Origin: Candidatus Limnocylindria bacterium
Lineage (GTDB): Bacteria > Chloroflexota > Limnocylindria > P2-11E
Reading direction: 5' to 3'
Length of the DNA stretch: 41,047 nucleotides
Assembly (NCBI GenBank): GCA_036395035.1
Contig: DASWDY010000018.1
Coordinates: 1 to 41,047, forward strand
This document shows positions 2,799-29,489 of the stretch, piece by piece. A model generated the notes under the pieces. That model was not told where the DNA came from, did no database searches, and saw only the letters and a list, made by a program, of their open reading frames with translations. The translations under genes and the position numbers were made by a program. Position 1 is the first letter of the stretch, and the number at the start of each line of letters is the position of its first letter.

Positions 2799-4211
2799 GT
2801 GAGGGCGAGCGAGGATCCGGCTCCGCCGGTCCGAGCGAGCTCTACAAGAGCGGAGCGGCTAGCCGCGAGCGAGCGAAGCGAGCCGACGGCTATTGAGGAG
2901 GTCACCGACCTCCTCCAGACGCTCATCCGCAACCGCTGCGTCAACGACGGGACACCGGGCTCTGGGAACGAAACGCGCAGCGTCGAGACGCTCGAGGCGT
3001 ACCTCGCCGGTCCCGGCGTCGAGATGCGGCGCTACGAGGCGGTCCCGGGGCGCGGCAACCTTGTGCTCCGCATCGAGGGCACCGACCCGACCGCGCCCAC
3101 CCTTTGCCTCATGGGTCACATCGACGTCGTGCCGGCGAGCGCCGAGGGCTGGGAGCGCGACCCGTTCGGCGGAGAGCTGGTGAACGGTGAGGTCTGGGGC
3201 CGCGGCGCGATCGACATGCTCGGGATCACAGCGTCGATGGCCGTCGCCGTGAAGCGGGCGATGCGGAGCGACTGGAGGCCGCGCGGCACGCTCATCTACC
3301 TCGCGGTCGCCGACGAAGAGGCGCTCGGCACGTACGGCGCGCAGTGGCTGGTCGAGCACGAGTGGGACGCCGTGCGGTGCGACCTGCTCGTCACGGAGTT
3401 CGGCGGCGCGCGCATCCCGCTCGGCAGCGCGCCAAGGCTTCCGATCATGGTCGCCGAGAAGGGCTCGCACTGGATGCGCCTGCGCGTGACGGGTGTGCCG
3501 GGCCACGGGTCGATGCCGTACCGCACCGAGAACGCGGTCGTGAAGATGTCCGAGGTCGTGCGGCGGATCGCGTCGTACCGTCCGCCGGCGGACACGCACC
3601 AGGTCTGGCTGCGCTTCATCGACGGTCTCGAGCTGCCGCCCGCGCAGCGCGCGCTCCTGCGCAGCGCGCCGGACCTCGAAGGCGAGCTGGGCCGGATGCC
3701 CGTCGGGGTCGCGCGGATGATGCACGCGGCCACCCATACGACGTTCTCGCCGAACGTCATGCACGGCGGCGTGAAGACGAACATCGTGCCCGACAGCGCC
3801 GAGATCCAGGTCGACATCCGCACGCTCCCGGGCATCGACGGCACTGCGGTCCACGCGATGCTGCGCGACGCGATCGGCGACCTGTGGGCCTCGGTCGAGA
3901 TCGCGGACGAAGGCGACAACCTCGCCACGGCGTCGCCCGTCGACACACCGCTCTGGCGCGCGCTCACGAACGCGACCGAGCGGCTCGTCCCCGGCGGCAC
4001 GACGATCCCGTTCCTCGTCGTCGGTGCGACCGACGCGCGCTTCTTCCGCCGCAAGGGCGTGACGGCGTACGGCTACGGGCTCTTCAGCGAGCGGATCCCC
4101 TTCAACGAGTTCTCGTCCATGTTCCACGGGAGGAACGAGCGGATCGACCAGACATCGCTGGGACTGATGGTCGATCTGTGGGGATCGGCGATGCGCGAGG
4201 TGCTCGGCTAG
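2799..4211 (+). CDS. M20-family metallopeptidase (ArgE/DapE/CPG2-like)
   Basis: 470-aa ORF with a GTG start 4 nt after the aspA stop. Metal-binding motifs of the M20/M25/M40 clan are present: LMGHIDVVPA, GRGAIDMLG and LAVADEEALG. Confidence 0.8.
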   Translation: MRASEDPAPPVRASSTRAERLAASERSEPTAIEEVTDLLQTLIRNRCVNDGTPGSGNETRSVETLEAYLAGPGVEMRRYEAVPGRGNLVLRIEGTDPTAPTLCLMGHIDVVPASAEGWERDPFGGELVNGEVWGRGAIDMLGITASMAVAVKRAMRSDWRPRGTLIYLAVADEEALGTYGAQWLVEHEWDAVRCDLLVTEFGGARIPLGSAPRLPIMVAEKGSHWMRLRVTGVPGHGSMPYRTENAVVKMSEVVRRIASYRPPADTHQVWLRFIDGLELPPAQRALLRSAPDLEGELGRMPVGVARMMHAATHTTFSPNVMHGGVKTNIVPDSAEIQVDIRTLPGIDGTAVHAMLRDAIGDLWASVEIADEGDNLATASPVDTPLWRALTNATERLVPGGTTIPFLVVGATDARFFRRKGVTAYGYGLFSERIPFNEFSSMFHGRNERIDQTSLGLMVDLWGSAMREVLG

Positions 4212-11642: not shown

Positions 11643-12689
11643 GTGTGCTCGCCGAGCGTGACCCTCGAAGCCGAAGGGGTCGGCCAGAGCGCGACGGGGA
11701 CCGCGCAGGACCGCGCTGGCAACACCGCCACGGCCGCCGTGGCGGGGATCAACATCGACCGCACGGCCCCGACGATCGCCGCCTCGCGGACGCCCGCGAA
11801 CACGAACGGCTGGAGCAGTGGTGACGTCACCGTGACGTTCAGCTGCGCCGACGCCCTCTCGGGCCTGGCATCGTGCTCGGCGCCCGTGGTGCTCTCGGCC
11901 GAAGGCGCGGCGCAGAGCGCGAGCGGATCCGCCCGGGACCCCGCGGGCAACACCGCGAGCGCGGTGGTCTCGGGGATCGACATCGATCGCACCGCGCCGA
12001 CCATCGTCGGAACGCCGACCGCCGCGAACGTGAACGGCTGGAGCAACGACGATGTCGTCGTCACGTTCGCGTGCGCCGACGCGCTGTCGGGCGTCGAGAG
12101 CTGCGGCGCGACGGCGGTGATCGTCGACGAGGGAGCCGGCCTCAGCGTCAGCCGCGGCGCGACCGACCGTGCCGGCAACGCGTCGACCGCGACGGTCGCG
12201 GGCGTGAACATCGATCGGACCGAGCCGACGATCGCGTTCTCCGGCAACGCGAGCGCGTACGAGGTCGACCACACCGTCGCGATCACGTGCGCCGCGACCG
12301 ACGCCCTATCCGGTGTCGCGACCACCACGTGTCCCGCCGTCGCGAGCGCGCCCGCGTACTCGTTCGTGACCGCGAACCCGACGGTCGTCACGCGTACCGC
12401 CACCGCGACCGACCTCGCCGGCAACACGACGAGCGCGAGCACGTCGTTCACGGTGACGGTCACGTACAGCGGCGTGTGTGCGCTGACAGGGTCGTTCTCG
12501 ACGAGCGCCACCGTCGGCGAGTCGCTCTGCGCGCAGCTGAGCGCCGCGGCGATGGCCGATAGCAGGGGTTCCGAGATCGCCAAGGGGAACGCGATCGCGT
12601 CGTATCAGAACGAGGTCCAGGCGCAGGTGGGTCGCGCGTTCACGAGCGCGCAGGCCGCCACGCTCATCTCGCTCTCGAAGCTCCTCTAG
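11643..12689 (+). CDS. Ig-like repeat protein (about 77-aa D.AGN...IDRTAPTI...C.D.LSG..SC repeats), apparently 5'-truncated with no signal peptide
   Basis: 348-aa ORF with three and a half tandem repeats. Examples are SARDPAGNTASAVVSGIDIDRTAPTI and NGWSNDDVVVTFACADALSGVESC. The ORF begins in the middle of a repeat unit, directly after the regulator stop and in the same frame. It ends in a helical C-terminal tail. Confidence 0.5.
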   Translation: MCSPSVTLEAEGVGQSATGTAQDRAGNTATAAVAGINIDRTAPTIAASRTPANTNGWSSGDVTVTFSCADALSGLASCSAPVVLSAEGAAQSASGSARDPAGNTASAVVSGIDIDRTAPTIVGTPTAANVNGWSNDDVVVTFACADALSGVESCGATAVIVDEGAGLSVSRGATDRAGNASTATVAGVNIDRTEPTIAFSGNASAYEVDHTVAITCAATDALSGVATTTCPAVASAPAYSFVTANPTVVTRTATATDLAGNTTSASTSFTVTVTYSGVCALTGSFSTSATVGESLCAQLSAAAMADSRGSEIAKGNAIASYQNEVQAQVGRAFTSAQAATLISLSKLL

Positions 12690-12907
12690 CGACCCGGCGC
12701 GCGTCCCGAACAGGGATGCGCTCGGCGATGAATGCGTCGTACGACACGCTCTGGCGCGATCTGTCACGGCCGCGCCTCGCCTGAGACCGTGGGGACACCG
12801 GTTCCGTAACGGACCTGTACGGCGCTGGTGTCTAGCGTTCTCGTCAGCGACCGCCGTCCCGAACGGGGCGGCATCAGGTGGGATCACAAAGAAGAGGGGT
12901 CCATCGA

Positions 12908-13471
12908 ATGCGCATCAAGGCGACAGCGATCCTCGCGGTCTTGCTCCTCGCGATCACAGCGCAGCCGGCGCTCGCGACCGTGACGTTCGACCCGGCAACG
13001 GGGACGGGCTTCGTCGGCAAGGGCGACATCCAGATCCCGTGGGGCTGGAACAACGCCAAGCTGCAGTCGGCGGCCGGGAGCGTGACGTTCTCGTACGTCC
13101 AGACGGACGCGGCCGACTACGGCGTCACGTGCGAGTGGGACACCGTGAACAAGATCCAGACGATCCATCACGCGGTCACGAACACGCGGTCCGTCAACGA
13201 CACCGTGGCCTATGACCTCGCCAGCGTCACCCGCAAGAACCCGCAAGGCAATGTGACCGGGTTCAAGCTGACCGGCTTCGGCGCGCTGACCGTCACCAGC
13301 TCCGGGGACGCGGTCCCGAGCGTCGGCGACGGCTGCCCGAACGGCGGCGACGGCATCGTCACCGCGGTGGACATCCTCTCCGCGACCTCGAGGGGCGGCC
13401 TCTACGCGACGAGCTCGACCGCGGGCACGGGCCCGACGCTCATCTGGGCACCCGCCATCCCCGCTCAGTAG
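12908..13471 (+). CDS. secreted hypothetical protein
   Basis: I prefer ATG 12908 over track start 12878, because GAAGAGGGG lies about 8 nt upstream. The signal peptide is MRIKATAILAVLLLAITAQPALA. The mature part is beta-rich and Thr/Gly-rich with 2 Cys. I recognise no family. Confidence 0.6.
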   Translation: MRIKATAILAVLLLAITAQPALATVTFDPATGTGFVGKGDIQIPWGWNNAKLQSAAGSVTFSYVQTDAADYGVTCEWDTVNKIQTIHHAVTNTRSVNDTVAYDLASVTRKNPQGNVTGFKLTGFGALTVTSSGDAVPSVGDGCPNGGDGIVTAVDILSATSRGGLYATSSTAGTGPTLIWAPAIPAQ

Positions 13472-16216: not shown

Positions 16217-16509
16217 GGAGGAGGCGCGGTTTCATCCCGTGGTCGCGTGGCAGTGCCCCCTCACCGCTCTCTCGTTCGCTCGACGGCCGAGAGAACGCTC
16301 GGGACCGTTACGAACTTGTGATGCGAAAGTGTCGCTCCTGTCACGGTGCTTGCAGCGTCACTCCCTGCGGTGGGACAGATCGCCCGGGCCTTCGGCCGGG
16401 TACCGCGGGTCGCGCCTGAAGCCGGGCCTGAGGCCCACGATCCGACGGCGCTGACCGGCCGCATCGTCGCGATCGAGTAGTCGGCTACTGAGATCGCGCT
16501 AGCACCTGC

Positions 16510-19500
16510 GTGATCCCCCCCCGCCTCAGCGGTCGGCAGACTGACCGCGTGCATGCTCGGGTCCCGGAGGAGCGGACTCTGCGCGTCCGCGTCGCGCTCG
16601 CGTTCGGCCAGCGGATGGTCCGTCAGGCGATCCAGCGTTCGCTCAGCTCCGTCGACGACATCGAGCTCGTCGGTCTCGCGGAGGACGGCGCGTCCGCGAT
16701 GGACCTCGTGGCGCGCGAGCGTCCCGATGTACTGCTCATCGACGAATCGCTCCCCGACTACGATGGCGTCGATGCGCTGCTGACGATCGCGAAGCGCTAC
16801 CCGCGCATCGGTCTCGTCCTCATCACGCATGCGCAGACCGCGGCCGACCGCGCGTGCGCGAGCATCGCGGATGACACGGTGGGCCTCGGCCGCTCCGCGC
16901 TCCAGTTCGTCACCGCGATCCGCACGGTCGCGAAAGCGAGGAGAGCGCCGATGTCGCGCCTGACGAGCCTCGTGAGGGCCCGGCTCGTCGGCGGTCCGGT
17001 GAGCTGGAGGTTCCGCGCCGTGGCGCTCGTGGCGACGCTCATCGCGTTCGTCGCCGCATCCAGCGGCGTCGTTTATCTCCTCGCACCGCCCGAGCAGCAG
17101 GGCCCGAGCGTGGTCGCGTTCGAAGCGTCATCGAACCTCACGGTCTTCCGCGGACCGGTGAGCATGCGCCACGGGGAGTCCCCGTTCGTGATGGTGCAGA
17201 GCGGCGATGTCCTTCGAAGCGGGGACGCGATCCGCACCGGCGCGGACGCCAGCGCCGCGCTGACGTTCTTCGACGGTTCCACGGCGACCCTCGGAGGCGA
17301 GAGCGAGCTGTCGATCCTCGCGCTGCGCTCGACGGCCGATGGCCAGATCGTCGTCGTGCTGCGGCAGGACCGCGGCGAGAGCTGGCACGCGATCGCATCG
17401 AAGCTCGGAGCGGAAGCGCGCTACGAGATCCTGACGGCCGAGGGTGCGGCGTCCGCGAAGGGCACGGCGTTCTGGGTGAAGGCCGAGAGAGGTCAGACGT
17501 GGGTCGTGACGACGGAGGGCGTCGTCGCGGCCAGCTCGGCGAACAACGTCGTCGCGGTCGCTCTCGGCATGCGGACGGTCCTTGGCGGCGGTCGGGCCGC
17601 GACGCCGGCGAGCACGCCGGTGGCGGACGATCTCGTGCGCGTGTCGCTGGACGCGACCGGCACGGCGCTGTTCCGTGATCCGGACGGTCGCGTCGCGGGT
17701 GTGAAGGACGGGCAGCCCGTGCGGATCATCCCGGGCTCGAGCGTCGAGCAGGTCGCGGGGAGGGTCGTCATCACGATGCCGGAGCCGCTCGCGGGCCAGC
17801 TGACGTCGGTCGTGTGGCCGAACGACCCGAGCGCGACCGAGATCGCGATCGGCTGGGAGATGCGGATGAAGGGCGGTCAGACGATCCAGGCCGTCGAGAA
17901 GCGCCCCGTCGAGGGTGGTGCCGCGAAAGGCGCTGTCGCGATGTCCGCCACAGGGATGCAAGCGCTCTCCGACGCGGATGCGCGAGCCGCGCCTACGCCG
18001 GTGGTCCCGTCGCCCCCCAGCTCGCCCGTCGCCGCGCAGTTCACGGGGCCGCAGGGACCGCCGGGCCCTTCCGGTCCGAAGGGTGACCCAGGTGCACCGG
18101 GTCCCGCGGGCGCGGCCGGTCCGGCTGGCGTCGCGGGCGCCTCCGGCGCCGCGGGTCCCGCGGGAGCTGCTGGCGCGGTCGGTGCCGCCGGTCCCGCCGG
18201 CACGACGGGGCCCGCTGGTGCAGCCGGTCCCGCGGGTCCGACGGGTCCGACCGGTGCTGCCGGCCCTGCTGGCGCGACCGGACCCGCCGGTCCAGTTGGT
18301 CCTACCGGTGCCGTCGGCCCTGCTGGCCCAGCCGGTCCCGCCGGCCCGACCGGTCCCGCGCCGGACACGAGCGTCTACGCGACGCTGACCGGCGCTCAGA
18401 CGCTGCACGACAAGACGCTCATCGACGCGTGGTTCGGGAACACCACGAACGCGAACACGGTGAAGATCGCGAGCAGCCCGAACGGGTCTTCGTACTCGTT
18501 GACCCTTCCAACGGCGCAGGGCAGCGCGAACCAGCTCCTACAGAACGATGGCACTGGCCAGCTCGTGTGGGCGTCGAGCACCGCCGCGTCCGGCTACACC
18601 TCAGTCGAGAACAACGGCACGGCGGTGACCGCGCGCAGCACGATCAACCTGCCGAGCGGCAGCGGGCTCGTCGCGACGGACGCCGGCGGAAAGACCGAGC
18701 TCAAGGTGGACAGCGGGACGGTCGTGTTCCTCACCGGCGCGCAGACGATCGGCGGCACGAAGACGTTCAGCTCCACGATCGTCGGCGACATCAGCGGGAA
18801 CGCTGGGACGGTCACGAACGGCGTGTACACGAGCGGGTCGTACGCGGATCCGTCGTGGATCACGTCGATCGCCGGATCCAAAGTGAGCGGGAACATCGCC
18901 GGCAACGCCGCCACGGCCACCGCCCTGGCCACGGCGCGCACCATCAACGGCGTCAGCTTCGACGGCACCGCGAATATCACCGTCCCCGCCGCCGCGGGCA
19001 CGCTCACCGGCTCGACGCTGGCCAGCAACGTGACCGGATCCTCGCTCACCAGCGTCGGCACGCTGAGCGGCCTCACCACCAGCGGCGCCATCAGCGCGCC
19101 CACGACGGCCAACACCATCAACGGCCTCGTCATCAGCAGCGGCGCGCTCTCCGGTGTGACCACCATCGGCGCCAGCGGCACGGTCACCGCGGGCGGCTTC
19201 TCGGGGCCACTGACCGGCAACGTGACGGGGAACGTGAGCGGGAGCGCGGCGAGCTTCACCGGCTCGCTCGCGGGCGACGTGACCGGCACGCAGGGCGCGA
19301 CGAGCGTCGTCAAGCTGAACGGCAACACGATCCCGGCGAACGCCGCCGGCGCGCTCACCAACGACGGGAGCGGGAACCTGACGTGGACCGTGTCTGGCGC
19401 GTGCAGCACATGCCTTGTGACGAACCCGAGCGCGACAAGCGTGAACACGATCGCGCCCACCGCCAACAACGTGGTCGGCCTCACGGTGAAGGGCACGACT

Positions 19501-22191
19501 GGGACCGCCGCGAACGTCCTCGAGGTGTTCGACTCCACGGCGACGCCGACGCGGCAGGCGTACTTCGACAGCACCGGCGCGCTCATCGCGAGCCGCCCGA
19601 TCACCGCCAGCGGCGGCGTCACCGGGAACCTCACCGGCAACGTGACCGGGGATGTGACGGGCAACGTCACCGGGAACGTGACGGGGAACGGCGCGCTCAC
19701 GCTCCAGGCGGGTGCCGGCAACAACAACGCGACGTTCGCGTCGACCGGCAGCGGGACGACCACCGTCGGTCAGGCCAGCGGAGGCACGACGATCGCGGGC
19801 AGCAGCCTCTCGTACGCCAACAACACCGCGTTCTCCGGCACCGCCGCGGGCATCTCGAGCACCGGCAACTTCACGGGCACGCTCTTCAAGCTCACCGCCG
19901 ATAGCACGACGGCTGGCACCATCCTCGGCATCAGTGGGCTCGGGCTTACGACGGGCAAGGCCATCGACGTGCAGCTGAACGCGCTCTACACGGGCGCGAG
20001 CGCGGTGAACATCAACGCCGGCGCGTACACCGGCACGATCCTCAACGTGTCGAGCTCGTCAGCGGCGGTCAGCCCCACGGGCAGCACGAGCCTCGCGTCG
20101 TTCTCCACCCCCGCGATCGGTGGCCAGATCCTGAGCGTCAGCGGCACGGGCCTGCTGAGCGCGAACAGCGGGCGCGCCATCAACGTCATGCTCGGGAGCT
20201 CGTCGGGCGGCGGCACCGGGATCTACCTGGACACGAGCGGCGCGGGCTACACGGGGAACTTCGTCGACTTGCGCCAGAGCGGCACCTCGAAGCTGACGAT
20301 CGACCAGACCGGCGCGATCACGACTGCCGGTAACTTCACGCAGACCGGCAGCGCGACGCTCGCGACCGGCACCGGCGCGGTCAGCCTGAACGGCGCGACG
20401 AGCGTGACCGGCAGCAACCCGTTCACCGTCGGCACGGGGACCTCCACGTTCGGCGGGAACATCAGCCAGACCGCGGGCAACTTCGCCCAGAGCGGCCCCG
20501 GCACGTTCTCGACCGGCACCGGCACGGTGTCCTTGAACGGCGACACGACCCTCGCCTCAGGCAAGAGCTTCACGCAGTCGGGCGCGGGGACGTTCTCGAC
20601 CGGCACCGGCGCGGTGTCCTTGAACGGCAGCACGACGCTGGCGGCGGACAAGACCTTCTCGGCCTCGAGCACGAGCGCGTTCACGGGCACGCTCGTCTCC
20701 CTCACCGCGTCGCAGACCAGCGGCACGGTCCTCGGGATCACCGCGAGCTCGCTGACGGGCGGCAAGGCGATCGACGTCCAGACCGGCGGCGGCTTCACCG
20801 GCACCGTCGTGAACCTCAGCGGCGGCGCGGCGTCGAACAGCGGGTCCGTCCTTCTGGGCCTGTCGAGCGGTCAGACGGTGGGCCAGGTACTCGGCGTCAA
20901 TGCCTCGGGCATCTACACCGGCAGCGGCCTCATGCAGCTGAACGCGAATGCCGCGACGACCGGGACCGTGCTCGGCATCAGCGCGACCGCACTGACCACG
21001 GGGAAGGCGCTCTCCTTCGTCCTCGGCACTGCCGGGACCGGGATCTCGATCAACGCGGCGACCGGATACACGGGTACCTTCGTGGACTACGGCGTCAACG
21101 GCACGTCGAAGTTCTCGGTCGACCAGGCGGGCAAGATCACTGGCGCGGGTGGCCTTCTCATCTCGTCCGGCGGCGCCGCCATCACCGGCAACAGCACGAT
21201 CACGGGAGCGCTCTCCGGCCTCACTGCGCTCACGTCGTCGGGGACGATCACGTTCAGCGGCCTCAGCAGCGCCGGACTGGTGACCAACGACGCGAGCGGC
21301 GTCCTCAGCTCGGTCGCCAACAGCAGTGGGACCAACGGTCAGGTGCTGACCCTCTCGGGCGGCGTGCCCACATGGGCGACGGACACGCGCAGCGGCACGG
21401 CGATCTTCGGCGATGGCAGCGACGGTGACGTGACGATCAGCGGGAACACCACGCTGGCGCGCGACATGTTCTACAACAGCCTCACCGTCAACAGCGGCGT
21501 CACGCTCAGCACCGGCAACTTCCGCGTCTTCGTCAAGGGCACGGCGACGGTGAACGGCGCGATCAGCGCGGACGGACCGAACGGCACCAATGCGGCGTCG
21601 GGCGCGGCCGGGACGGGCGGCACCGCCCCCGCGGCCGGGACGATGGGCAAGGGCAATAGCGGCGGCAACGCGGTCAGCAACAACGCTGGCCAGGCGGGCA
21701 CGGCGGCGACGATGTCGCAGGGCGGCGCGGGTGGAACGGGCTCCGCCTCGACGGGGACGGTGAAGGCGGGTGGCGCGGGTGGCACGGTGACCGCACCGAC
21801 GCCGGTCACTGGCTCGCTGCGGAACGTAGCGCTCGCGTTGACAGGCATCGCCGGCTTCAATCAGATCAACGGCGGCGCCGGTGGCGGAGGCGGCGGTTCG
21901 GCGAGCGCGGCGAACGTTGGCGGAGGCGGCGGCGCGGGCGGCGGTGTCCTCTTCCTCGCGGCGAGCTCGATCAGCGTCGGCGGCAGCGGAACCATCAGCG
22001 CCAACGGGGGCAGCGGCGGCAACGGCTTCAACACTGGCGGCGGCGGCGGCGGTGGCGGCGGCGGCGCGGTCGTGGTCGTGTACGGCAGCTACTCGGGCGC
22101 CTCTCCGACGGCCAGCGCGGGCGCCGCGGGCAGCGGCGGCACGGCGGGTGCCGCGGCGAGCGCCGGCGTCGTGATCACCCTCGTCAACTAG
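16510..22191 (+). CDS. giant membrane-anchored fibre protein: receiver-like domain, TM helix, FecR-like domain, collagen triple-helix repeat, tail-fibre-like Gly/Thr/Ser-rich rod and Gly-rich C-terminal module
   Basis: A single uninterrupted 1,893-codon frame. The start is uncertain: GTG 16510, or GTG 16549 which gives [15 protein letters not shown]. The domain calls are detailed in the sub-features and findings. Confidence 0.85.
16579..16944 (+). other. segment encoding a degenerate (pseudo-)receiver domain, aa 24-145
   Basis: [18 protein letters not shown]...[57 protein letters not shown] aligns with NarL-type REC domains. Asp78 (acceptor position) and Thr105 are kept. The acidic DD pair after beta-1 is replaced by F32-G33, and the beta-5 Lys is not evident. 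Confidence 0.65.
17008..17544 (+). other. segment encoding the single TM helix (aa 167-190) and the FecR-like domain (aa about 205-345)
   Basis: The TM helix is [24 protein letters not shown]. It is followed by [31 protein letters not shown] ... KGTAFWV, the characteristic FecR-domain pattern (..L.DGS...L...s.l.i ... GT.F.V). Confidence 0.6.
18046..18360 (+). repeat. collagen-like repeat: 35 uninterrupted G-X-Y triplets (105 aa)
   Basis: [105 protein letters not shown]. Gly occupies every third position with no interruption. Confidence 0.9.
18790..18984 (+). other. segment resembling the phage tail-fibre repeat
   Basis: [65 protein letters not shown]. The A..LA..R.I.G..FDG..NI pattern is what I recall from the Phage_fiber_2-type repeats of lambda/T-even tail fibres. 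This needs HMM confirmation. Confidence 0.45.
19618..19689 (+). repeat. 12-nt tandem repeat x6 encoding (V/L)TG(N/D) tetrapeptides
   Basis: The peptide reads [24 protein letters not shown]. The DNA units are gtcaccgggaac, ctcaccggcaac, gtgaccggggat, gtgacgggcaac, gtcaccgggaac and gtgacggggaac. Confidence 0.85.
20470..20655 (+). repeat. 87-nt (29-aa) tandem duplication inside the fibre gene
   Basis: The two units are [29 protein letters not shown] and [30 protein letters not shown] 39-nt core at 20503-20541 matches 20590-20628 with one mismatch. A more diverged third copy lies at about 20329-20412. Confidence 0.8.
22036..22065 (+). repeat. (GGC)5-GGT-(GGC)4 microsatellite encoding Gly10
   Basis: This is a direct reading of ggcggcggcggcggcggtggcggcggcggc. 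It lies within the Gly-rich C-terminal module ([17 protein letters not shown]). Confidence 0.9.
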
Positions 22192-22211: not shown

Positions 22212-22616
22212 ATGCGGGATGCGGCGCGACGCCTCGTGCGTGTGGGGGCGTCCCTTGTGCTGGCGGCGCTCCTTCTCGCGGGGTCCTTCTCGTTCGTCCG
22301 CTGGTGGGACCTGACGCTGCCCTCCATCGGGCACGCGACGTACCAGGCCGTGTTCCTCTCGAACGGCCAGGTCTTCTTCGGCCGTTACTACGACCGCATC
22401 GGGCCATACGTGAAGATCGTGTCGCCCTACTACATCCAGCAGACGGGTGATCCGAGCGACGCGACCAAGCCCGCCGAGTCGCGCATCGTACGGAGAGGCG
22501 ACGAGCTCCATGCCCCGCTGCCCGAGATGCTCGTGCCGCGCACTTCCTTGCTCTTCGTCGAGGATCTCTCTGCGGGCTCGGCGGTCGCGCAGTTCATCGC
22601 GAAGGACCGGCCGTGA
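22212..22616 (+). CDS. small membrane-anchored protein, paralog 1 of an unrecognised family
   Basis: 134 aa. The ATG is 20 nt after the fibre-gene stop, with GAAAGG upstream. It has one N-terminal TM helix and shares the motifs VFLSNGQVFFG, YY, RRGDELHAP and LLFVEDL..GSAV with 22613..23011 and 23584..24135. Confidence 0.7.
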   Translation: MRDAARRLVRVGASLVLAALLLAGSFSFVRWWDLTLPSIGHATYQAVFLSNGQVFFGRYYDRIGPYVKIVSPYYIQQTGDPSDATKPAESRIVRRGDELHAPLPEMLVPRTSLLFVEDLSAGSAVAQFIAKDRP

Positions 22617-23011
22617 GGCTCCAGCTGGATCGCCGCTGGCTGGCGCAGTGGATCGGGATCCCGCTGCTCGCGGGTGCGCTCCTCGCGCTCATCGTCCCTC
22701 CGCCATCCGCGTGGAGCGTCGAGCGCATGAGCGCCGTCCTCCTTCTCGACGGCCAGGCGTACTTCGGGCATGTCACCGAGGTGCCGTGGTCCGACACCGT
22801 GCAGGTGAACGACGTGTATTACTTCCAGGACGCCCGCGGGAGCTCGATGAACCTGCCGCTCGGGCTGCAGCGCCGAGGCGGTGAGCTGCATCAGCCGACG
22901 GACGGGATGTCGCTCCGCCGCGACAAGATCCTCGCCATCGAGCCGCTGTCGGTCTCGTCGGCGGTACGCAGGGCGATCGCGGTCGAGCGCGTGCTGCAAG
23001 GGGCACGCTGA
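22613..23011 (+). CDS. small membrane-anchored protein, paralog 2
   Basis: 132 aa with a GTGA overlap with paralog 1. It has an N-terminal TM helix and the motifs VLLLDGQAYFGH, VYYFQ, QRRGGELHQP and ILAIEPLSVSSAV. Confidence 0.7.
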   Translation: MRLQLDRRWLAQWIGIPLLAGALLALIVPPPSAWSVERMSAVLLLDGQAYFGHVTEVPWSDTVQVNDVYYFQDARGSSMNLPLGLQRRGGELHQPTDGMSLRRDKILAIEPLSVSSAVRRAIAVERVLQGAR

Positions 23012-23013
23012 CG

Positions 23014-23556
23014 ATGGCCTTGCGCGTCTCGGTCAGGGGCCTGTTGCTCGGTGGCAGCGTGCTCGCGATCATCGCGACCGCCGTACCCGCGCTGCTGCCG
23101 GCAGCCGGCGAGGAGCTGACGCCGCGGACCGTCGCCGGCCGCGAGCTCGTCGATGCCCAGGTGATCGCGACCCAGCGTGCGGTCCAGCGCGGTCACGCCC
23201 GCGCTCTCGGACAGCTGAGCCAGGTCCGACAGCTGAAGCTCGCCATCACTGAGGCTCAGGCGGCGGCCATCGAGCGCAAGGCCAAGGACGACCTCAGCGC
23301 GGTCCGGCGCGAGGCCATCGCCACGGTCGCGGGCCTCATCGGTCTCAAGGGCGCGCAGATCGAGCCCTACGTGGTGAGCACGGAACGTGAGCTCGACCGA
23401 GCCGACCTCGGGGCAGAGCCGGGCGTGCTCTTGGCGCCCCAGCTCTTCAACGTCGTCCGACGGGCCGACGCGCTGCTCGGGCAGATCGCGGATCGCGCTA
23501 CTCGCGAGCTGACCGGGAGCGGGGCGACGCCCAGCCCGCGGCCGACCGGTCCATAA
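23014..23556 (+). CDS. membrane-anchored or secreted helical (coiled-coil-like) protein
   Basis: 180 aa, with the ATG 2 nt after the paralog-2 stop. The hydrophobic N-terminus is LLLGGSVLAIIATAVPALLPAAG. The rest is an Ala/Gln/Arg/Leu-rich helical sequence with a Pro-rich C-terminus. Confidence 0.65.
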   Translation: MALRVSVRGLLLGGSVLAIIATAVPALLPAAGEELTPRTVAGRELVDAQVIATQRAVQRGHARALGQLSQVRQLKLAITEAQAAAIERKAKDDLSAVRREAIATVAGLIGLKGAQIEPYVVSTERELDRADLGAEPGVLLAPQLFNVVRRADALLGQIADRATRELTGSGATPSPRPTGP

Positions 23557-23583: not shown

Positions 23584-24135
23584 GTGGATATCGAGCTGAG
23601 GGAGGGCCTCCGCCGCGTGCTGCTGGTCATCCTCGCGGCGCTCCTGGCCCTCGGGCTGGGGACGACCGCGTACGCGTGGAACGAGGGCTTGCCGCCGTTC
23701 GGACCGAGCGACGATCAGTGGTCTGGGGTCTTCCTCACGAACGGGCAGGCATACTTCGGGCACTTCTACGCCGCCCCGGGCGACTACGCGCGGCTGCGCG
23801 AGGTCTACTACGTGCTCGCGACGCAGTTGCAGCCGTCCGATCCGCGCGTCCCGGTCCAGACGCAGCTCAGCCTGCAGCGGCTCGGTGGCGAGATCCACGG
23901 TCCGAAGCGCGACATGAGGGTCTCGAAGGCGCAGATCCTCTTCGTCGAGGATCTCCGTCCGGACTCGCCGGTCGTCGCGACGATCCAGCAGCTGCGCCAG
24001 GGGATCGTCCCCGCGCCGCAGCAACCCGCGCCGGCCCCGCCGACGCAGGCGCCGGCGACCGCGTCGCCGACACCGCCGCCCACCACGGTCGGACCGACCC
24101 CGACGCGGACCGCCTCGCCGTCACCCACGCGCTGA
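23584..24135 (+). CDS. small membrane-anchored protein, paralog 3, with a Pro/Thr/Ala-rich C-terminal tail
   Basis: 183 aa with a GTG start preceded by GAAGGAG. It has an N-terminal TM helix and the motifs VFLTNGQAYFGH, VYYV, QRLGGEIHGP and ILFVEDLRPDSPV. The tail reads PAPQQPAPAPPTQAPATASPTPPPTTVGPTPTRTASPSPT. Confidence 0.7.
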   Translation: MDIELREGLRRVLLVILAALLALGLGTTAYAWNEGLPPFGPSDDQWSGVFLTNGQAYFGHFYAAPGDYARLREVYYVLATQLQPSDPRVPVQTQLSLQRLGGEIHGPKRDMRVSKAQILFVEDLRPDSPVVATIQQLRQGIVPAPQQPAPAPPTQAPATASPTPPPTTVGPTPTRTASPSPTR

Positions 24136-24213: not shown

Positions 24214-25563
24214 GTGAACGCTGCGGTGCAGCTGCGCCCGTCGGCGGCGGGCGCGCTCTTCACGACGCTGGCCGTCGCGGCCGCGCTCGTGCTCCTCGCG
24301 ATGGCGGTCACGGGCACGGGGCGCGGGGACGCCCTGACGGGCGGATCGCCCACGCTCGCGGTCGCCATGCGCGCGACGTTCCTGTTCGTCTCGGTGACGG
24401 CGCTCGTCGGCCTCGCGTGGCTGCGCGGGATCCCGTACCCGCCGATCCACGACCCGACGCCGTTCCACAACGACGCCATCGCGCTGAACGAGTGCGCCGC
24501 GCAGATGCTGCTCGGTCGCGCCGACCCGTACGAGGAGTTCGGGCTGCTCAACTGTTACGGCGCGCGCGGCCTCGGCCCGGATCGGACGACACCGCTGCGC
24601 GTCGGCCCGTTCGCCGACATCGAGATCTACCCCACCGAGGAGCGGATGGACGCGGCGTGGACCGCGGCCGCGCGCTGGTCGTCGCAGTGCCTGGGCTGCG
24701 TCATCTCGATCGTGCCCCCGGACTTCCCGTTCGAGTGGCGGCTCTCGTATCCGGCGCTCTCATTCGTCCTCCTCGTCCCGTGGGTCGTCCTCGGCTGGGA
24801 CACGAACACGCTCTACGTGCTCTGCCTCCTCGCCGCGATGGCGCTCGTCGTCATGCGCGCGCCCGCGGGGTCGCGCCCGTTCCTCATCACCGGCCTCCTG
24901 GCCGCGGTCTCGCTCACCGCCTTCACCGTCGGCGGCAGCGCCGACCTCCTCTATGCGCTGCCGCTCGTCGCGGCGTGGCTGTGGCGCGAGCGGCGGTGGA
25001 GCGCGGTCGCGCTCGGCGTCGCGGCGTCCGTGAAGCAGCTCGCGTGGCCGTTCGCGGTCTTCTACCTCATCCAGGTCGCGACCCGGGACGGCTGGCGCGA
25101 GGCGACGCGGCGCGCCGCGGTCGCCGGCGCCGTCTTCGTCGCGGTCAATGCGCCGTTCGTGGCGTGGAACGCGCAGGCGTGGATCCGCGGGATCCTCACG
25201 CCCGTCTCGGAGCCGATGTTCCCGCGCGGCGCGGGCATCGTGTTCCTGTCGACGAACGGGGTCCTGCCGCTCTTCCCACCGACGGTCTACCTCGCGCTGG
25301 AAGGGATCGCCGCGGTCACCGTCCTGATCGTTGCGTGGCGATCGCGCCGGACGAGCCCGGAGCTCGGCGTCGTGCTCGCGATGGTGCCGCTCTTCTTCGC
25401 CTGGCGGAGCCTCTTCTCCTACTTCTTCCTGCTGCCGCTGTTCGCGTTCGCCGCGCTCGCGCGCATGCCTGCGGGCGAGCTCTCCGCCGAGACCGCGCGG
25501 GCATCCGGAGCGCTCACCGTCCTCGCGATGCCCGCTCCGCGATCGCCAGCAGGGCGGAGCTGA
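24214..25563 (+). CDS. polytopic membrane protein, GT-C/GT87(DUF2029)-like glycosyltransferase candidate with a Cys-containing loop insertion
   Basis: 449 aa with about 10 hydrophobic helices. The first loop contains HND...GRADPYEE, then an insertion of about 70 aa with 4 Cys, then LSYPALSFVLLVP, and later SVKQLAWPF. This layout parallels the 4244..5416 protein. The true start may lie upstream (see findings). Confidence 0.55.
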   Translation: MNAAVQLRPSAAGALFTTLAVAAALVLLAMAVTGTGRGDALTGGSPTLAVAMRATFLFVSVTALVGLAWLRGIPYPPIHDPTPFHNDAIALNECAAQMLLGRADPYEEFGLLNCYGARGLGPDRTTPLRVGPFADIEIYPTEERMDAAWTAAARWSSQCLGCVISIVPPDFPFEWRLSYPALSFVLLVPWVVLGWDTNTLYVLCLLAAMALVVMRAPAGSRPFLITGLLAAVSLTAFTVGGSADLLYALPLVAAWLWRERRWSAVALGVAASVKQLAWPFAVFYLIQVATRDGWREATRRAAVAGAVFVAVNAPFVAWNAQAWIRGILTPVSEPMFPRGAGIVFLSTNGVLPLFPPTVYLALEGIAAVTVLIVAWRSRRTSPELGVVLAMVPLFFAWRSLFSYFFLLPLFAFAALARMPAGELSAETARASGALTVLAMPAPRSPAGRS

Positions 25564-25786
25564 CCGCCGCGGCGATCGCCGCGAACAGGAGCTGCGCGTC
25601 GCCGAGGACGCCGATGCGCGTCCCGGTGAGCTCGCCGACCACCTGCGCGGCCGTGACGGCGGCGACGGCGGCCAGCCACGCGGTCCCGAGCGCACGCGGA
25701 CGGCCGACGGCGGCGCGCAACGCGGCCGGGACACCGATCGCGACGAGAAGGAGCGGCACGACCGCGGGCGGCATGTGCCTCATCAT
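25514..25786 (-). CDS. possible small membrane protein (90 aa)
   Basis: The ORF has high third-position GC and two to three hydrophobic segments (MPPAVVPLLLVAIGVPAAL, WLAAVAAVTAAQVV, LLFAAIAAAVSSALLAIA). It is divergent from alaS and overlaps the 3' end of 24214..25563 by 50 nt. There is no homology support. Confidence 0.35.
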   Translation of the reverse strand: MMRHMPPAVVPLLLVAIGVPAALRAAVGRPRALGTAWLAAVAAVTAAQVVGELTGTRIGVLGDAQLLFAAIAAAVSSALLAIAERASRGR

Positions 25787-25794
25787 TCATCGGA

Positions 25795-28452
25795 ATGGAC
25801 AGCAGCGCGATCCGCGAGGCGTTCTTCTCCTTCTTCGAGAAGAGGGGGCACGTCCGCCTGCCCAGCGCGCCGCTCGTCCTGAAGGACGACCCGAGCGTCC
25901 TCTTCACGAGCGCGGGCATGCAGCCGCTCGTGCCGTACTTCACCGGGAAGAAGCAGCCACCGGCCAAGCGCATCGTCACGGTGCAGAAGGTCCTGCGCAC
26001 GAGCGACATCGACGACGTCGGCCGGGATGCCTACCACCAGACGTTCTGGGAGATGCTCGGGAACTTCTCGATCGGCGACTACTGGAAGTCCGACTCGCTC
26101 CAGTGGAGCTGGGACCTCCTGACCGGCCCGTTCGGCTTCGACGGCGACCGCCTCGTCGCGACGGTCCACGTGAGCGACGACGAGGCGTACGGGATCTGGA
26201 CGAAGCAGATCAAGCTGCCGCCGGAGCGCGTCTTCCGCCTCGGCGACGAGTTCAACTTCTGGACGCCGGGGCCGACGGGACTCTGCGGTCCGGACAGCGA
26301 GATCTTCATCGACAAGGGTCCGCAGCCTGGCGTCCCGCCGCACCAGTGCGACCCGAGCGAGAACTGCGGCCGGTACGTCGAGATCTGGAACAACGTGTTC
26401 CAGCAGTACGACCGCCAGACCGACGGCACGCTCGTGCCGCTCCCCAAGAAGAACATCGATACGGGCGCGGGCCTCGAGCGCATCGCGCAGGTGCTGCAGG
26501 GCGTGCCCGGCGACACGTTCCGCACCGATCTGTTCAAGCCGCTGGTCGAGAAGGTCGAACAGCTCGCCGGCGTCCGGTACGGCGACCCGAGCGTTGATCG
26601 CTCGATCCGCATCGTCGCCGAGCACTCTCGCGCGGCGACGTTCCTCATCGGCGACGGCATCCAGCCGTCGAACGAGAACCGCGGCTACGTCCTGCGCCGC
26701 ATCATCCGCCGCGCCGCGCTCCACGCGCGCAAGCTCGGCCTCCGGACCGGGACCATCGCGCAGCTCGGCGTCCTCTCGACGCGCGTGATGCAGGCGCACT
26801 ATCACGAGCTCGCCGAGGGACGCGAGCGCATCAGTGAGACGCTCGAGGCCGAGGAGCGGAAGTTCGAGCAAACGCTGTCGAGCGGCCTCGACCAGCTGAA
26901 CGCGGCGATCGCGTCGGCGCGGTCCGGTGGCCGAAAGGGCATCGACGGCGACACCGTGTTCCGCCTGTACGACACGTTCGGCTTCCCGATCGAGATGACG
27001 CGCGAGATCGCTGGCGCGGCCGAGCTCGAGCTCGACGAGCGTCGCTATCGCGAGCTGCTCGAGCAGCAGCGCGCCCGCAGCCGGGCGAGCGCGAAGTTCT
27101 CGCAGGACGCCATGCGCTTCGGCCAGTTCTATTCGGACCTCCGCGAGCGCGCGGGCGTTCGCAGCGTGTTCACCGGGTACGGCGAGCTCGCGACCGACGC
27201 GCGCATCGTCTCGCTCGCCATCGGCGGCGCGCGCGTCGACGAGGCGCCCGAGGGCAGTGAGGTCGAGATCGTCCTCGACCGCACGCCGTTCTATCCCGAG
27301 GGCGGTGGGCAGGTCGGCGACCGCGGCCACGTGACGACGAGCGAAGGGCGCGCGATGGTCGCGGATACGCAGACGGCCGCGCCGGAGGTGGTCGTCATGA
27401 TCGCGACCGTCGTCGACGGCGTGCTCCGCATGGGCGCCGCGGCGCACGCGGAGGTCGACGCGGAGCTCCGGCAGCACACGATGCGGAACCACACGGCGAC
27501 GCATCTGCTGCATGCCACGCTTCGCCGCGTGCTCGGTGACGAGGTCCATCAGGCGGGCTCGCTCGTCCACGCGCCGAACCTCCGGTTCGACTTCACGTTC
27601 GGGCGCGCGGTGTCACCCGAGGAGCTGCGGCAGGTCGAGGACGGGGTGAACCGGCTGGTCCTCGACAACAGCGAGGTCCACGCGCACGTCATGCCGCTGC
27701 AGGACGCGCTCGCGTCGGGCGCGCTGCACCTGTTCGACGAGAAGTACGGCGGCGAGGTGCGCGTCGTCGAAGCGGGGCCGAGCCGCGAGCTGTGCGGCGG
27801 CACGCACTGCCACTCGACGGGCGACATCGGTCTGTTCCTCATCACGAGCGAGGGCTCCATCGGCGCGGGGCTCCGTCGCATCGAAGCCGTCACCGGCCTC
27901 GGGGCGCTGCACGAGGTACGCGGCGTGCGCGACCGCACCACGCGCGTCGCCCAGCTCCTGCGCGTGCCCGAGGAGCGCGTCGTCGACGCCGCGGAGCAGC
28001 TCGTCGAGCAGCGCGCGCGGCTCGAGAAGGACCTTGGCTCGGCGCGGCGCGCGAGCATGGACACGTCCGCGATGGGCCTCGTCGCGAAGGCCGAGGCGCT
28101 CGACGGCATACGCCTCGTCGTCGCGAACGTCGGCGAGGCCGATGGCAAGCAGCTCCGCGAGCTGTCAGACCGCGTGCGCGACCAGATCGGGTCCGGCATC
28201 GTCATCCTCGGCAGCGTGCGCGACGACCGCGCCCAGCTCGCGGTCGGCGTTACGAAGGACCTGACGAAGGCGGTGCACGCCGGGACCGTCGCGAATCAGA
28301 TCTCGTCGATCGTGGGCGGCAGCGGCGGTGGCCCGCCGCACAGCGGCACCGGTGGCGGCAAGGACGTCGGACGGCTGTCGGAGGCGCTCGATGCCGGGCG
28401 GCGGATCGTCCGAGAACAGATCGACGGGGGCCGTGGCGCAGCTTCGCTCTAA
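25795..28452 (+). CDS. alaS: alanine--tRNA ligase
   Basis: 885 aa. The N-terminus is IREAFFSFFEKRGH. The editing-domain zinc motifs HTATHLLH and CGGTHC are present, and the C-terminus is a DHHA1-like domain. Confidence 0.95.
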   Translation: MDSSAIREAFFSFFEKRGHVRLPSAPLVLKDDPSVLFTSAGMQPLVPYFTGKKQPPAKRIVTVQKVLRTSDIDDVGRDAYHQTFWEMLGNFSIGDYWKSDSLQWSWDLLTGPFGFDGDRLVATVHVSDDEAYGIWTKQIKLPPERVFRLGDEFNFWTPGPTGLCGPDSEIFIDKGPQPGVPPHQCDPSENCGRYVEIWNNVFQQYDRQTDGTLVPLPKKNIDTGAGLERIAQVLQGVPGDTFRTDLFKPLVEKVEQLAGVRYGDPSVDRSIRIVAEHSRAATFLIGDGIQPSNENRGYVLRRIIRRAALHARKLGLRTGTIAQLGVLSTRVMQAHYHELAEGRERISETLEAEERKFEQTLSSGLDQLNAAIASARSGGRKGIDGDTVFRLYDTFGFPIEMTREIAGAAELELDERRYRELLEQQRARSRASAKFSQDAMRFGQFYSDLRERAGVRSVFTGYGELATDARIVSLAIGGARVDEAPEGSEVEIVLDRTPFYPEGGGQVGDRGHVTTSEGRAMVADTQTAAPEVVVMIATVVDGVLRMGAAAHAEVDAELRQHTMRNHTATHLLHATLRRVLGDEVHQAGSLVHAPNLRFDFTFGRAVSPEELRQVEDGVNRLVLDNSEVHAHVMPLQDALASGALHLFDEKYGGEVRVVEAGPSRELCGGTHCHSTGDIGLFLITSEGSIGAGLRRIEAVTGLGALHEVRGVRDRTTRVAQLLRVPEERVVDAAEQLVEQRARLEKDLGSARRASMDTSAMGLVAKAEALDGIRLVVANVGEADGKQLRELSDRVRDQIGSGIVILGSVRDDRAQLAVGVTKDLTKAVHAGTVANQISSIVGGSGGGPPHSGTGGGKDVGRLSEALDAGRRIVREQIDGGRGAASL

Positions 28453-29488
28453 GACCGAGCGCGGTCCGGCCGTGGCCGGCGTCGAGCTCGGGGCCGATCG
28501 GGTGCGGGTCGTCGTCGGCCACCGCGAGGCGGCCGGCATGCGCGTCACCGGCCTGTCGCAGGCGCCGCTCCGCCCCGGGACCATGAGCGGCGGTCTGGTC
28601 GTCGACCGCGAGGCCGTCGGCGGCGCGATCGCGAGCGCGCTCTCCGTCGCGGAAGCCCGCGAGAAGGCGACGCGGATCATCGCCGCGATCGATGGCGATG
28701 ACGTGCGCACGTATCACGTCGCGACGACCTTCGAGCGCGAGGCGCTGAACGAGCCGATGAGCCAGGGTGAGGTCACGCGCGCCGTGCAGGAGGCGCGCGC
28801 GGAGGCGGAGCGCGGCGCGCGCGAGGCCGCCGTGAACGACGCGTCGCTGCGCGGGATCGCGACGGTGCAGCTCCGCGACGACGTCGCCGGGCTCGCCCTC
28901 GACGGCCGCCCGCTCACGTCGCTCGTGGGATTCCAGGGCCGCTACGTCGAGATCCGCACGGACGTGTCGCTCGCGCCGCTCGTCGTCGGCAGCGCCGCGA
29001 GCGGGGCGCTCGACACGGCGAAGCGGCGCGGGACCGTGACGAGCGGCGCGTACGCGCTCGGCCGGCTCATGGCCGCGTCCGGCCTCGTCGAAGGCGCCGT
29101 GCTGCGCCTCGGCGCCGACGTCACGGCATTCGCCGTCGTCCGGGGGTCGCGTGTCGTCGCGACGCGCGCGTTCGGCCTCGGACGCGACGCGTTCTTCGCG
29201 CGCATGGAGCGCGTCGAGCGCGACGCCGCGGTCTGGGCGCGGTGCGTCGTGTCCCCGCTGACCGGCCTCGAGGGCCTGCTGCCCTCGCGGTGGCACTTCG
29301 TCGGCGTGCCCGAGGAGCTCGTGGCGCTGCCGCGCGCGCTCGGCGACGCGCTGGCGGAGCAGCGCGGTGGCGATGTCGAGATGTCGCCGCTGCGGCCCGC
29401 GCTCGCATCGCGCGTCTTCGCGTCGGAGCCGCTCCACGCGGACGACCTCGTCGCCGTCGGCGCGGCCGCGTTCGCCGCGGAGATCTAG
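28433..29488 (+). CDS. actin-fold (FtsA/PilM-like) protein with degenerate nucleotide-binding motifs
   Basis: Track ORF 28328..29488, trimmed to GTG 28433. The order of elements matches FtsA/PilM: VAGVELGADRVRVVVG (phosphate-1 position), a GLVVDREAVGGAI segment, an inserted domain, then GAVLRLGADVTAFAVV (phosphate-2 position) and AFGLGRDAF. The usual Asp residues are E and R here. Confidence 0.5.
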   Translation: MAQLRSKTERGPAVAGVELGADRVRVVVGHREAAGMRVTGLSQAPLRPGTMSGGLVVDREAVGGAIASALSVAEAREKATRIIAAIDGDDVRTYHVATTFEREALNEPMSQGEVTRAVQEARAEAERGAREAAVNDASLRGIATVQLRDDVAGLALDGRPLTSLVGFQGRYVEIRTDVSLAPLVVGSAASGALDTAKRRGTVTSGAYALGRLMAASGLVEGAVLRLGADVTAFAVVRGSRVVATRAFGLGRDAFFARMERVERDAAVWARCVVSPLTGLEGLLPSRWHFVGVPEELVALPRALGDALAEQRGGDVEMSPLRPALASRVFASEPLHADDLVAVGAAAFAAEI

Positions 29489-29489
29489 G

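Follow-up and report, generated by a model that had tools for sequence, protein, structure and literature searches.

We analysed a 41,047-nt stretch of DNA from a Candidatus Limnocylindria bacterium (contig DASWDY010000018.1 of assembly GCA_036395035.1), hereafter the window, and focused on a giant gene that occupies positions 16510–22191 of its forward (+) strand. The features of this gene and of its neighbours are collected in Table 1. A first-pass annotation, made from the sequence alone, had described one uninterrupted frame of 5,682 nt here, and this holds: the open reading frame (ORF) stays open for 1893 codons from a GTG. However, a second GTG at 16549 is the likelier start and would give 1880 residues, because the orthologue alignment begins there and two gene callers picked it; the gene call is 1880 residues in the Joint Genome Institute (JGI) and European Nucleotide Archive (ENA) annotations and 1893 residues at NCBI.

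Using the window proteins mnmA and s1 as handles, we retrieved further contigs and obtained six additional assemblies of this locus (L119–L124: JGI 3300012360, JGI 3300012358, GCA_009772905.1, GCA_009772115.1, ERZ27253183 and ERZ27253180). All six come from other samples and other pipelines, yet each carries the ORF at identical length, with 5–11 substitutions and without indels or stop codons. The collagen repeats are just 65–76% self-similar at the DNA level, which makes repeat collapse unlikely. With seven assemblies concordant and free of indels, we rejected the mis-assembly or chimera that the first-pass annotation had raised as a concern, and consider mis-assembly of the ORF very unlikely. 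The coding signal points the same way. In blocks of 100 codons, GC content at third codon positions (GC3) is 0.86–0.99 throughout, except in the collagen block, where GC3 is 0.67 and the first and second positions (GC1 and GC2) stand at about 0.9. Such values are typical of genuine genes in this window of 70% GC, and both GC and GC3 of the giant gene agree with the genome. The antisense 'ORFs' within it are shadow frames with shared third positions.

When the domains are checked one by one, the Pfam models Response_reg, FecR and Collagen all score above their gathering thresholds. The N-terminal assignment of residues 24–145 to NarL-type receivers was correct: Pfam places Response_reg (PF00072) at residues 35–114 with 38.8 bits (cutoff 30.2), the best PDB sequence matches are VraR, NarL and DesR, the AlphaFold2 (AF2) model has a (beta-alpha)5 fold, and the motifs quoted for the domain lie at residue 71 and, for GLVLITH, at residue 101. 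In Foldseek the receiver model aligns to the CheB, DesR and NarL receivers with target-normalised template-modelling scores (TMt) of 0.76–0.87; receiver matches fill the list of this search with the N-terminal model, which leaves it uninformative for the FecR-like and post-FecR domains. Both sequence and predicted fold put the domain closest to the receivers of NarL, LiaR, VraR and DesR. The prefix 'pseudo' that it had been given also proved apt. Aligned with the canonical regulators of related loci, the acidic pair DD of the catalytic quintet (DD, Asp, Thr/Ser and Lys) is replaced by FG, FG, SG and VG in the four lineages that carry the giant protein, and the conserved Lys by L, L, Q and L, whereas the phospho-acceptor Asp (residue 77) and the Thr are retained in all four. 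The domain is therefore a conserved pseudo-receiver. The fold is kept at 42–52% identity between lineages. Next comes the single hydrophobic helix that had been placed at residues 167–190, which hydropathy and the AF2 model (helix at residues 166–185) both support. Its flanks are rich in Arg and Lys before the helix and acidic or neutral after it, and since they obey the positive-inside rule we predict an N-in/C-out topology.

Beyond the membrane, the FecR pattern noted at residues 205–345 (approximately) corresponds to a Pfam FecR match (PF04773, residues 239–339) of 38.8 bits (cutoff 24) that covers profile positions 1–96 of 97. The AF2 model shows beta strands over residues 207–358, and the two motifs that had drawn attention to the domain lie at residue 249 and, for KGTAFWV, at residue 317. 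In a MAFFT alignment, G318–T319 stands opposite G181–T182 of Escherichia coli FecR, and GTAF is invariant across 15 family members. E. coli FecR self-cleaves between Gly181 and Thr182, at a GT motif conserved across anti-sigma factors of this kind (PMC8144685). The giant protein has the motif and, judged by it, may self-cleave. It departs from FecR/FoxR-type anti-sigma factors in that its N-terminus is a receiver and not a cytoplasmic anti-sigma domain, and we found no genes for sigma factors, of the extracytoplasmic function (ECF) type or other, or for TonB receptors in the window or in related loci. A second all-beta domain follows, at residues 374–485. It has no Pfam match, is about 51% conserved between lineages and is common to a family of small Limnocylindria FecR proteins. 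When a family profile of the FecR-like and second beta domains was searched against the PDB, the sole match was a marginal one to the RIN anchor domain of MpIBP (5ix9, E 0.005), covering the first half of the FecR-like region.

The Pro/Ser spacer was found where it had been described, and the earlier count of 35 unbroken G-X-Y triplets at residues 513–617 is exact. Pfam Collagen (PF01391) matches residues 513–570 with 43.5 bits (cutoff 27.2), and Pro makes up 34% of the X and Y positions. Repeat length and Pro content suggest a homotrimeric triple helix, and a helical stalk would measure roughly 30 nm. Between lineages the collagen varies in length (35, 31+8, 29 and 24 triplets). Synonymous codon usage across the stalk is varied, which lowers its DNA self-similarity. 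The NCBIfam model adhesin_SclA (NF038330) reaches 50.1 bits against a cutoff of 400 and covers the collagen part alone; the C-terminus (...AGVVITLVN) lacks an LPXTG motif, which sets the protein apart from Scl1/SclA. PHROG 'tail' matches of the giant protein are likewise confined to the collagen. The neck behind the stalk keeps its motif in 4/4 lineages, and a related motif, LTGAQTxxGxKTF, accounts for a weak, sub-threshold Pfam BppL_N match at residues 737–756.

The rod (residues 618–1623) is, as first noted, nearly charge-free (5.1% D/E/K/R) and rich in Gly, Thr, Ser, Ala and Asn (66%). Its tail-fibre-like motifs are real, with the one quoted in the first-pass annotation at residue 803, but two of the counts given there need adjusting: of the three L..(D/S)G.G...W copies two are strict and the third is looser, and (V/L)TG(N/D) occurs 8 times, not six. 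Within the rod, residues 770–880 form a widely distributed fibre cassette; about 100 of 120 fetched matches hit there alone, at 60–90% identity, and some of the environmental fibre proteins that bear it also have Peptidase_S74, BppL_N or Gly_rich_2. Modules A and B are an internal duplicate of about 165 residues (43% identity, E 3e-31), module A being 53–63% conserved in the orthologues. The GTGAVSLNG repeats between the two correspond to an 87-nt tandem repeat at 20501–20682. Pfam searches with separate segments (post-FecR domain, rod, tip and the neighbouring genes s1–s4) gave nothing past the weak BppL_N match, and phmmer of the fibre part against the PDB gave nothing useful. By its sequence, the distal part is mosaic and phage-tail-fibre-like.

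The C-terminal tip is the part for which the earlier description changed most. It had been called a repetitive Gly-rich module ending in Gly10. It is Gly-rich, but it is more than a repetitive module, namely a defined globular domain family and not low-complexity sequence, and Gly10 (residues 1843–1852) lies 41 residues short of the C-terminus. Modelled as a monomer from an alignment of 47 members, the tip reaches a predicted local distance difference test score (pLDDT) of 95.8 and a predicted template-modelling score (pTM) of 0.92; by DSSP the model is largely non-regular. Exhaustive phmmer searches place 4409 representative clusters (clustered at 50% identity) in the family at E<=1e-3, and 150 listed representatives (P0146–P0295) are 45–55% identical to the tip across the full domain. 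Members share a hallmark of about 265 residues, in which a conserved motif is followed by RIFVKGTLT and then by Gly-rich segments with a poly-Gly run. The domain is nearly always C-terminal, and many members are short, at about 300 residues in all. Pfam has no model for the family, and the sole library match is phrog_13336, whose function is undescribed.

Foldseek of the tip against the PDB gave no significant match, the best non-significant ones being a polyproline-II antifreeze protein and the gp38 adhesin of phage S16. Structural matches came from giant-virus collagen-like proteins and phage proteins, with query-normalised scores (TMq) of 0.65–0.86. The proteins A0A2I2L5F3 and A0A2I2L380 of Orpheovirus and S4VX73 of Pandoravirus dulcis reach TMq 0.81–0.86 at 30–39% identity, and proteins of uncultured Caudovirales also match the fold. 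On IMG/VR contigs, tip-family genes adjoin tail genes: one (L104) adjoins minor tail and tail fibre genes, and near another (L108) there is a weak major-tail-protein match. When the giant gene is held against the marks of a phage tail fibre, its locus is a housekeeping one, its tip matches phrog_13336 and the viral homologues of the tip lie beside tail genes. Across the four lineages, the conserved junction is followed by three mutually unrelated tip domains. This suggests that the tip is an exchangeable, virus-type domain, with a putative role in ligand binding.

Table 1. Features of the giant gene and of the genes that follow it (positions in the window).
Feature	Position	Strand	Details
Degenerate (pseudo-)receiver, NarL/LiaR type	16585..16944	+	Residues 26-145; Pfam, PDB matches, AF2
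Single transmembrane (TM) helix, signal anchor	17005..17079	+	Residues about 166-190; hydropathy; AF2 helix
Extracytoplasmic FecR-like all-beta domain	17122..17583	+	Residues about 205-358; Pfam match within
Gly318-Thr319 (KGTAFWV)	17461..17466	+	Aligned to the self-cleavage site of E. coli FecR
Conserved all-beta domain, no family	17629..17964	+	Residues 374-485; AF2 pLDDT 70-89
Pro/Ser-rich spacer	17992..18045	+	Residues 495-512; 33% Pro, 0 charged residues
Collagen-like stalk	18046..18360	+	Residues 513-617; 35 unbroken G-X-Y triplets
Post-collagen neck, GPAPDTS.Y.TLTGAQT...	18361..18609	+	
Fibre cassette, widely distributed	18817..19149	+	Residues 770-880
Rod module A	19852..20331	+	Residues about 1115-1274
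Rod module B	20662..21150	+	Residues about 1385-1547
Junction motif before tip	21337..21375	+	Equivalents GAALTIVGGTPAW, GDLIMWNGSAWI precede unrelated orthologue tips
Gly-rich C-terminal tip domain	21379..22188	+	Residues 1624-1893
s1	22212-22616	+	N-terminal TM anchor; paralogue of s2, s4
s2	22613-23011	+	N-terminal TM anchor; paralogue of s1, s4
s3	23014-23556	+	N-terminal TM anchor; coiled coil
s4	23584-24135	+	N-terminal TM anchor; paralogue of s1, s2
GT87-like polytopic membrane glycosyltransferase	24214..25563	+	Pfam GT87 28.2 bits (cutoff 25)

The full architecture occurs in four lineages: that of the window, L001, L021 (with L023, a separately deposited assembly of the same organism) and L022. 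In L001 (ENA ERZ1760244, GX_forest_Scaff3016043) the orthologue spans 2402 codons. A single in-frame TGA at 3557–3559, in place of a Gly codon of the G-X-Y register, splits it into called genes of 536 and 1762 residues; the collagen continues in frame beyond, and the TGA may stem from a sequencing error, mark a recent pseudogene or be read through. The orthologues of L021 (P0004) and L022 (P0005) have 1424 and 1435 residues. All align end to end. Between the window and L021, the housekeeping neighbours are 80–84% identical but the giant gene only about 49%, which indicates that it evolves fast.

The architecture appears to be rare. Besides the window protein, Response_reg, FecR and Collagen are combined in just three proteins of a collection of 5.8 billion, a search that was word-filtered and may overstate the rarity, and 80 metagenome loci yielded one more locus, from the same organism as one of the three. 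No NCBIfam or PADLOC model fits the giant protein, and a literature search gave nothing on its architecture. The first-pass annotation did not recognise the domain combination as a described family, and we too came across neither a model nor a name or paper that covers it. Each kind of domain is known, as are collagen-like adhesins, fibres of the mosaic adhesive trimer (MAT) type and FecR-type transducers; it is the combination that looks undescribed.

The lineages differ in ways that form a pattern of modular exchange: collagen length is variable, the cassette at residues 770–880 is present (window and L001), partial (P0005) or absent (P0004), and the tips are unrelated. This matches the pattern of phage receptor-binding proteins and of the MAT fibres of Bdellovibrio bacteriovorus, which have an invariant N-terminal part, a mosaic rod and 'tip swapping' (PMC10769870). 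The likeness to MAT fibres is architectural: both are chromosomal and phage-tail-fibre-like, with a constant cell-proximal N-terminus, a mosaic rod and exchangeable tips, and some relatives of the cassette have an S74 chaperone domain, like S74-type MATs. However, the N-terminal domain of MATs, a hallmark of that superfamily together with an intertwined trimeric beta-prism/beta-helix rod, is soluble and presumed to attach to a surface element, and MATs lack TM helix, receiver, FecR domain and collagen; moreover, Bdellovibrio is a predator, whereas the host here is a soil Chloroflexota-like bacterium.

The constant part has relatives of its own. Its first 500 residues are a lineage-specific bacterial membrane module, and the base alone (TM helix, FecR-like and beta domains) is common in Candidatus Limnocylindria, in metagenome-assembled genomes of other Chloroflexota and in soil metagenomes. 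All named relatives of the base are Chloroflexota, mostly Limnocylindria, except for one partial match in Candidatus Udaeobacter (L016). On these grounds an actinobacterial origin of the window, which its GC content and the hisS-aspS...alaS-mltG-aroC gene order might suggest, was not retained. They include the small FecR family (L003–L015 and L024–L055), proteins of about 550–700 residues that consist of TM helix, FecR domain, beta domain and Pro/Thr-rich repeats and end in a Cys-containing C-terminal motif such as C.P.LTC. With the base common and the giant form rare, the giant protein seems to be an uncommon offshoot of an anchor family specific to this lineage. In about 18 loci the gene of the small FecR protein comes directly after the ATPase gene that closes a Liv-type ABC transporter operon. 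A link to an FtsE-like ATPase was ruled out: the ATPase is LivF-like and ends the Liv-type operon.

In all four lineages the giant gene lies between mnmA and alaS, ahead of the same set of small ORFs and of a gene for a GT87-like protein; synteny in the window includes hisS-aspS...alaS-mltG-aroC. In L001, L021 and L022, a kinase of about 300 residues (HK2) and then a canonical receiver–GerE (REC-GerE, NarL-type) regulator are encoded directly upstream of the giant gene. HK2 matches HisKA (PF00512). Its N-terminus consists of two TM helices with no more than a few residues between them, and it lacks a sensor domain; these traits make it a kinase of the intramembrane-sensing type.

Our preferred reading, which we hold to be probable with considerable room for doubt, is that the giant protein is a surface fibre, probably a trimer, with an N-terminal membrane anchor; its exchangeable tip would bind a ligand, and its base may couple to a sensor-less kinase and its regulator. 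The protein would be a type-II (N-in, C-out) cell-surface fibre of a soil bacterium. Innermost would be the receiver, devoid of Mg2+- and phosphoryl-binding residues, followed outward by TM helix, FecR-like beta domain, second beta domain, Pro-rich spacer, collagen, beta-rod and tip. Stalk and rod would carry the tip past the cell wall, where it would bind an external ligand, e.g. a cell, particle or glycan. The base of FecR-like domain, TM helix and pseudo-receiver would serve as an anchor and also report the state of the fibre to the cytoplasm, through contact with HK2 and/or its NarL-type regulator. The kinase/regulator pair upstream in 3/4 lineages and the invariant Gly-Thr lend circumstantial support to such a sensing fibre, which the first-pass annotation had suggested might sense contact or force. 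LiaFSR-type kinases offer a precedent, as they take input via an accessory membrane protein. LiaFSR and VraSR systems likewise pair a two-TM kinase that has almost no external loop with a NarL-type regulator, and the receiver of the giant protein is closest to those of VraR and LiaR. By analogy, the fibre may be the accessory protein of HK2, although HK2 matches HisKA and no LiaF-like protein is present.

Several observations weigh against this reading. The tip is confidently predicted as a monomer, and the trimer is a prediction from the collagen. A tblastn search of 50,697 phage records in GenBank with the fibre part returned no match. The lineage of the window lacks the upstream kinase/regulator pair and has a 294-nt spacer instead. 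Its receiver is unusually variable: this region (16549–17004) makes up 8% of the gene but holds 6/19 variable nucleotide sites among seven population variants including the window (binomial P 0.003) and 4/11 variable residues in the same set, the window and L119–L124 (binomial P 0.009). Although the numbers are small, this excess may reflect relaxed constraint on the cytoplasmic domain in the window lineage, which would fit loss of the partner. Finally, the small FecR family, far commoner than the giant protein, has neither a cytoplasmic domain nor a signalling neighbour, and a FecR base can therefore be purely structural.

These last points lead to the alternative that the protein is a passive fibre or adhesin, in which pseudo-receiver, TM helix and FecR-like domain are an anchor or assembly platform only and nothing is passed inward. 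We consider this possible but doubtful. The small Limnocylindria proteins share the same TM-FecR-beta base, the window lineage lacks an adjacent kinase and regulator and its receiver shows excess polymorphism, and the marginal match of the family profile is to RIN, the N-terminal retention or plug module of RTX adhesins such as MpIBP, a cell-proximal beta-sandwich that retains a giant adhesin on the cell (PDB 5IX9; PMC5550230). RIN, however, is the periplasmic plug of a TolC-type pore in the type I secretion systems of diderms, whereas the domain discussed here follows a TM helix, and the similarity is too weak for a claim of homology. Three observations speak against a mere anchor: the receiver fold persists at 42–52% identity in four lineages with Asp and Thr retained; in three of them the genes immediately upstream encode a sensor-less membrane kinase and a NarL-type regulator; and the Gly-Thr motif, a mark of signalling FecR proteins, does not vary.

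A more specific version of the sensing fibre would make it a bacterial counterpart of the tethered mechanosensors of the adhesion G-protein-coupled receptor type, with a cleaved base, a tether of collagen and phage-type fibre, a pulled tip and a pseudo-receiver acting on HK2. Here the FecR-like domain would self-cleave at G318–T319 and its halves would stay non-covalently joined until a pull on the engaged tip dissociates the cleaved base or exposes it. Intramembrane proteolysis of the site-2 type or a rearrangement of the TM helix would then free or re-orient the pseudo-receiver, which could act on HK2 and the regulator, e.g. as an anti-regulator or decoy substrate. We regard this scheme as unlikely; if true, it would be a new input route to two-component signalling from viral receptor-binding modules.

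Still less probable, and in our view quite improbable, is that the gene was captured from a phage or giant virus and is a prophage remnant or phage-binding decoy rather than a host surface organelle. The tip family and the cassette at residues 770–880 do occur in viral proteins, and there is the weak BppL_N match. Yet the surroundings of the gene in four lineages are a conserved housekeeping block (mnmA ... alaS) without phage genes nearby, its base composition is that of the genome, its N-terminal 500 residues are bacterial, and neither PADLOC nor the tblastn search of phage records returned anything. A prophage or defence island was ruled out on the same absence of nearby phage genes and of PADLOC matches, which for the latter covers the giant protein, s1–s4, the GT87-like protein, u1 and u2. 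To an assembly chimera or pseudogene, with mis-joined repeats in a frame kept long by high GC, we give almost no credence: spurious long ORFs are common at 70% GC, the gene has collagen and Gly repeats and L001 has its in-frame stop, but seven assemblies agree without indels, GC3 is of the coding type along the entire frame, three Pfam domains exceed their gathering scores, the orthologues align end to end and the tip model is highly confident.

Several known systems resemble parts of the preferred sensing fibre. Like E. coli FecR, the giant protein is predicted to be single-pass and N-in/C-out, with a candidate partner-binding domain in the cytoplasm and, beyond the TM helix, a FecR domain with the aligned Gly-Thr; it differs in having a degenerate receiver in place of the anti-sigma domain and about 1,550 more extracellular residues, and no ECF sigma factor or TonB-dependent transducer lies near its gene. 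With Scl1/SclA and BclA it shares a long unbroken G-X-Y run and a distal globular domain. Scl proteins are held by a C-terminal LPXTG anchor and BclA is attached to the exosporium, whereas the giant protein has an N-terminal TM anchor, signalling-type domains and a phage-like rod of 1,000 residues after the collagen. The collagen-like proteins of Orpheovirus and Pandoravirus dulcis have the tip fold in common with it, and their names suggest a combination of tip and collagen repeats; these are viral, however, and the N-terminal membrane/signalling base is not seen in them. As the giant protein would be, RsgI of Clostridium thermocellum is a membrane-anchored sensor of a likely monoderm cell, in which external binding is relayed inward from a distal ligand-binding module, over a linker of the Pro/Thr type, to a (self-cleaving) domain next to the membrane (PMC10328401). 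It has another juxtamembrane fold with an Asn-Pro cleavage motif, another cytoplasmic domain and SigI as its partner, and is without collagen or fibre rod.

One polypeptide here brings together three separate, well-studied toolkits, namely the receivers of two-component systems, transmembrane signalling of the FecR type and the receptor-binding fibres of viruses, which makes it a candidate for contact sensing through a long fibre in a monoderm-type soil bacterium. It also suggests a testable input for sensor-less intramembrane-type histidine kinases, namely an accessory fibre protein with a pseudo-receiver. The tip family, common to phages, giant viruses and bacteria and lacking a solved structure, is a clear target for structural work and for studies of host or ligand recognition, and the giant protein itself offers a first molecular entry point to the surface of cells from an abundant, uncultured soil Chloroflexota-like lineage.

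Downstream, the giant gene and s1–s4 are closely spaced (gaps of 20, -4, 2 and 27 nt). The paralogues s1, s2 and s4 share the motif NGQ.[YF]FG, and none of s1–s4 has a match in Pfam or NCBIfam. The string recurs in related lineages, although L021 and L022 seem to lack s4. As s1–s4 are 65–78% conserved between lineages whose tips are unrelated, a role as tip-specific chaperones is unlikely. The GT87-like protein, which has no NCBIfam match, contains at least 7 hydrophobic segments and has counterparts of about 70% identity in L001 and L021; its gene is syntenic in all lineages. The proteins s1–s4 and the GT87-like protein may help to assemble the base or to glycosylate the Thr/Ser-rich rod. On the minus strand, an ORF of 86–90 residues (25514–25786) that has no family assignment overlaps the GT87-like gene at its 3' end and is called in every related contig, including L001 and L021.

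Upstream, the 294-nt leader that separates the giant gene from mnmA gave no Rfam match when searched for a riboswitch or structured leader (fold z-score -1.04), and a sigma-70 promoter scan found none. Within this leader, at 16370–16480 (+), JGI gene finders call a 36-residue ORF in some assemblies (L116, L117 and L122).

Elsewhere in the window, two unassigned ORFs lie in the interval between alaS and mltG, of which ruvX is the usual occupant. The first (28328–29488) has weak FtsA/PilM-like similarity; the second (29367–30956) has a TM segment and a Baseplate_J match of 28.9 bits (gathering 21.1), and Baseplate_J is also annotated in related contigs. On the other side of the giant gene, an ORF at 11643–12689 with an OmpL47-type beta-barrel and immunoglobulin-like repeats is followed at 12878–13471 by a gene for a secreted protein of 197 residues that belongs to no family. 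Together they (11643–13471) occupy the place of two cyclic nucleotide (cNMP)-binding genes in L021.

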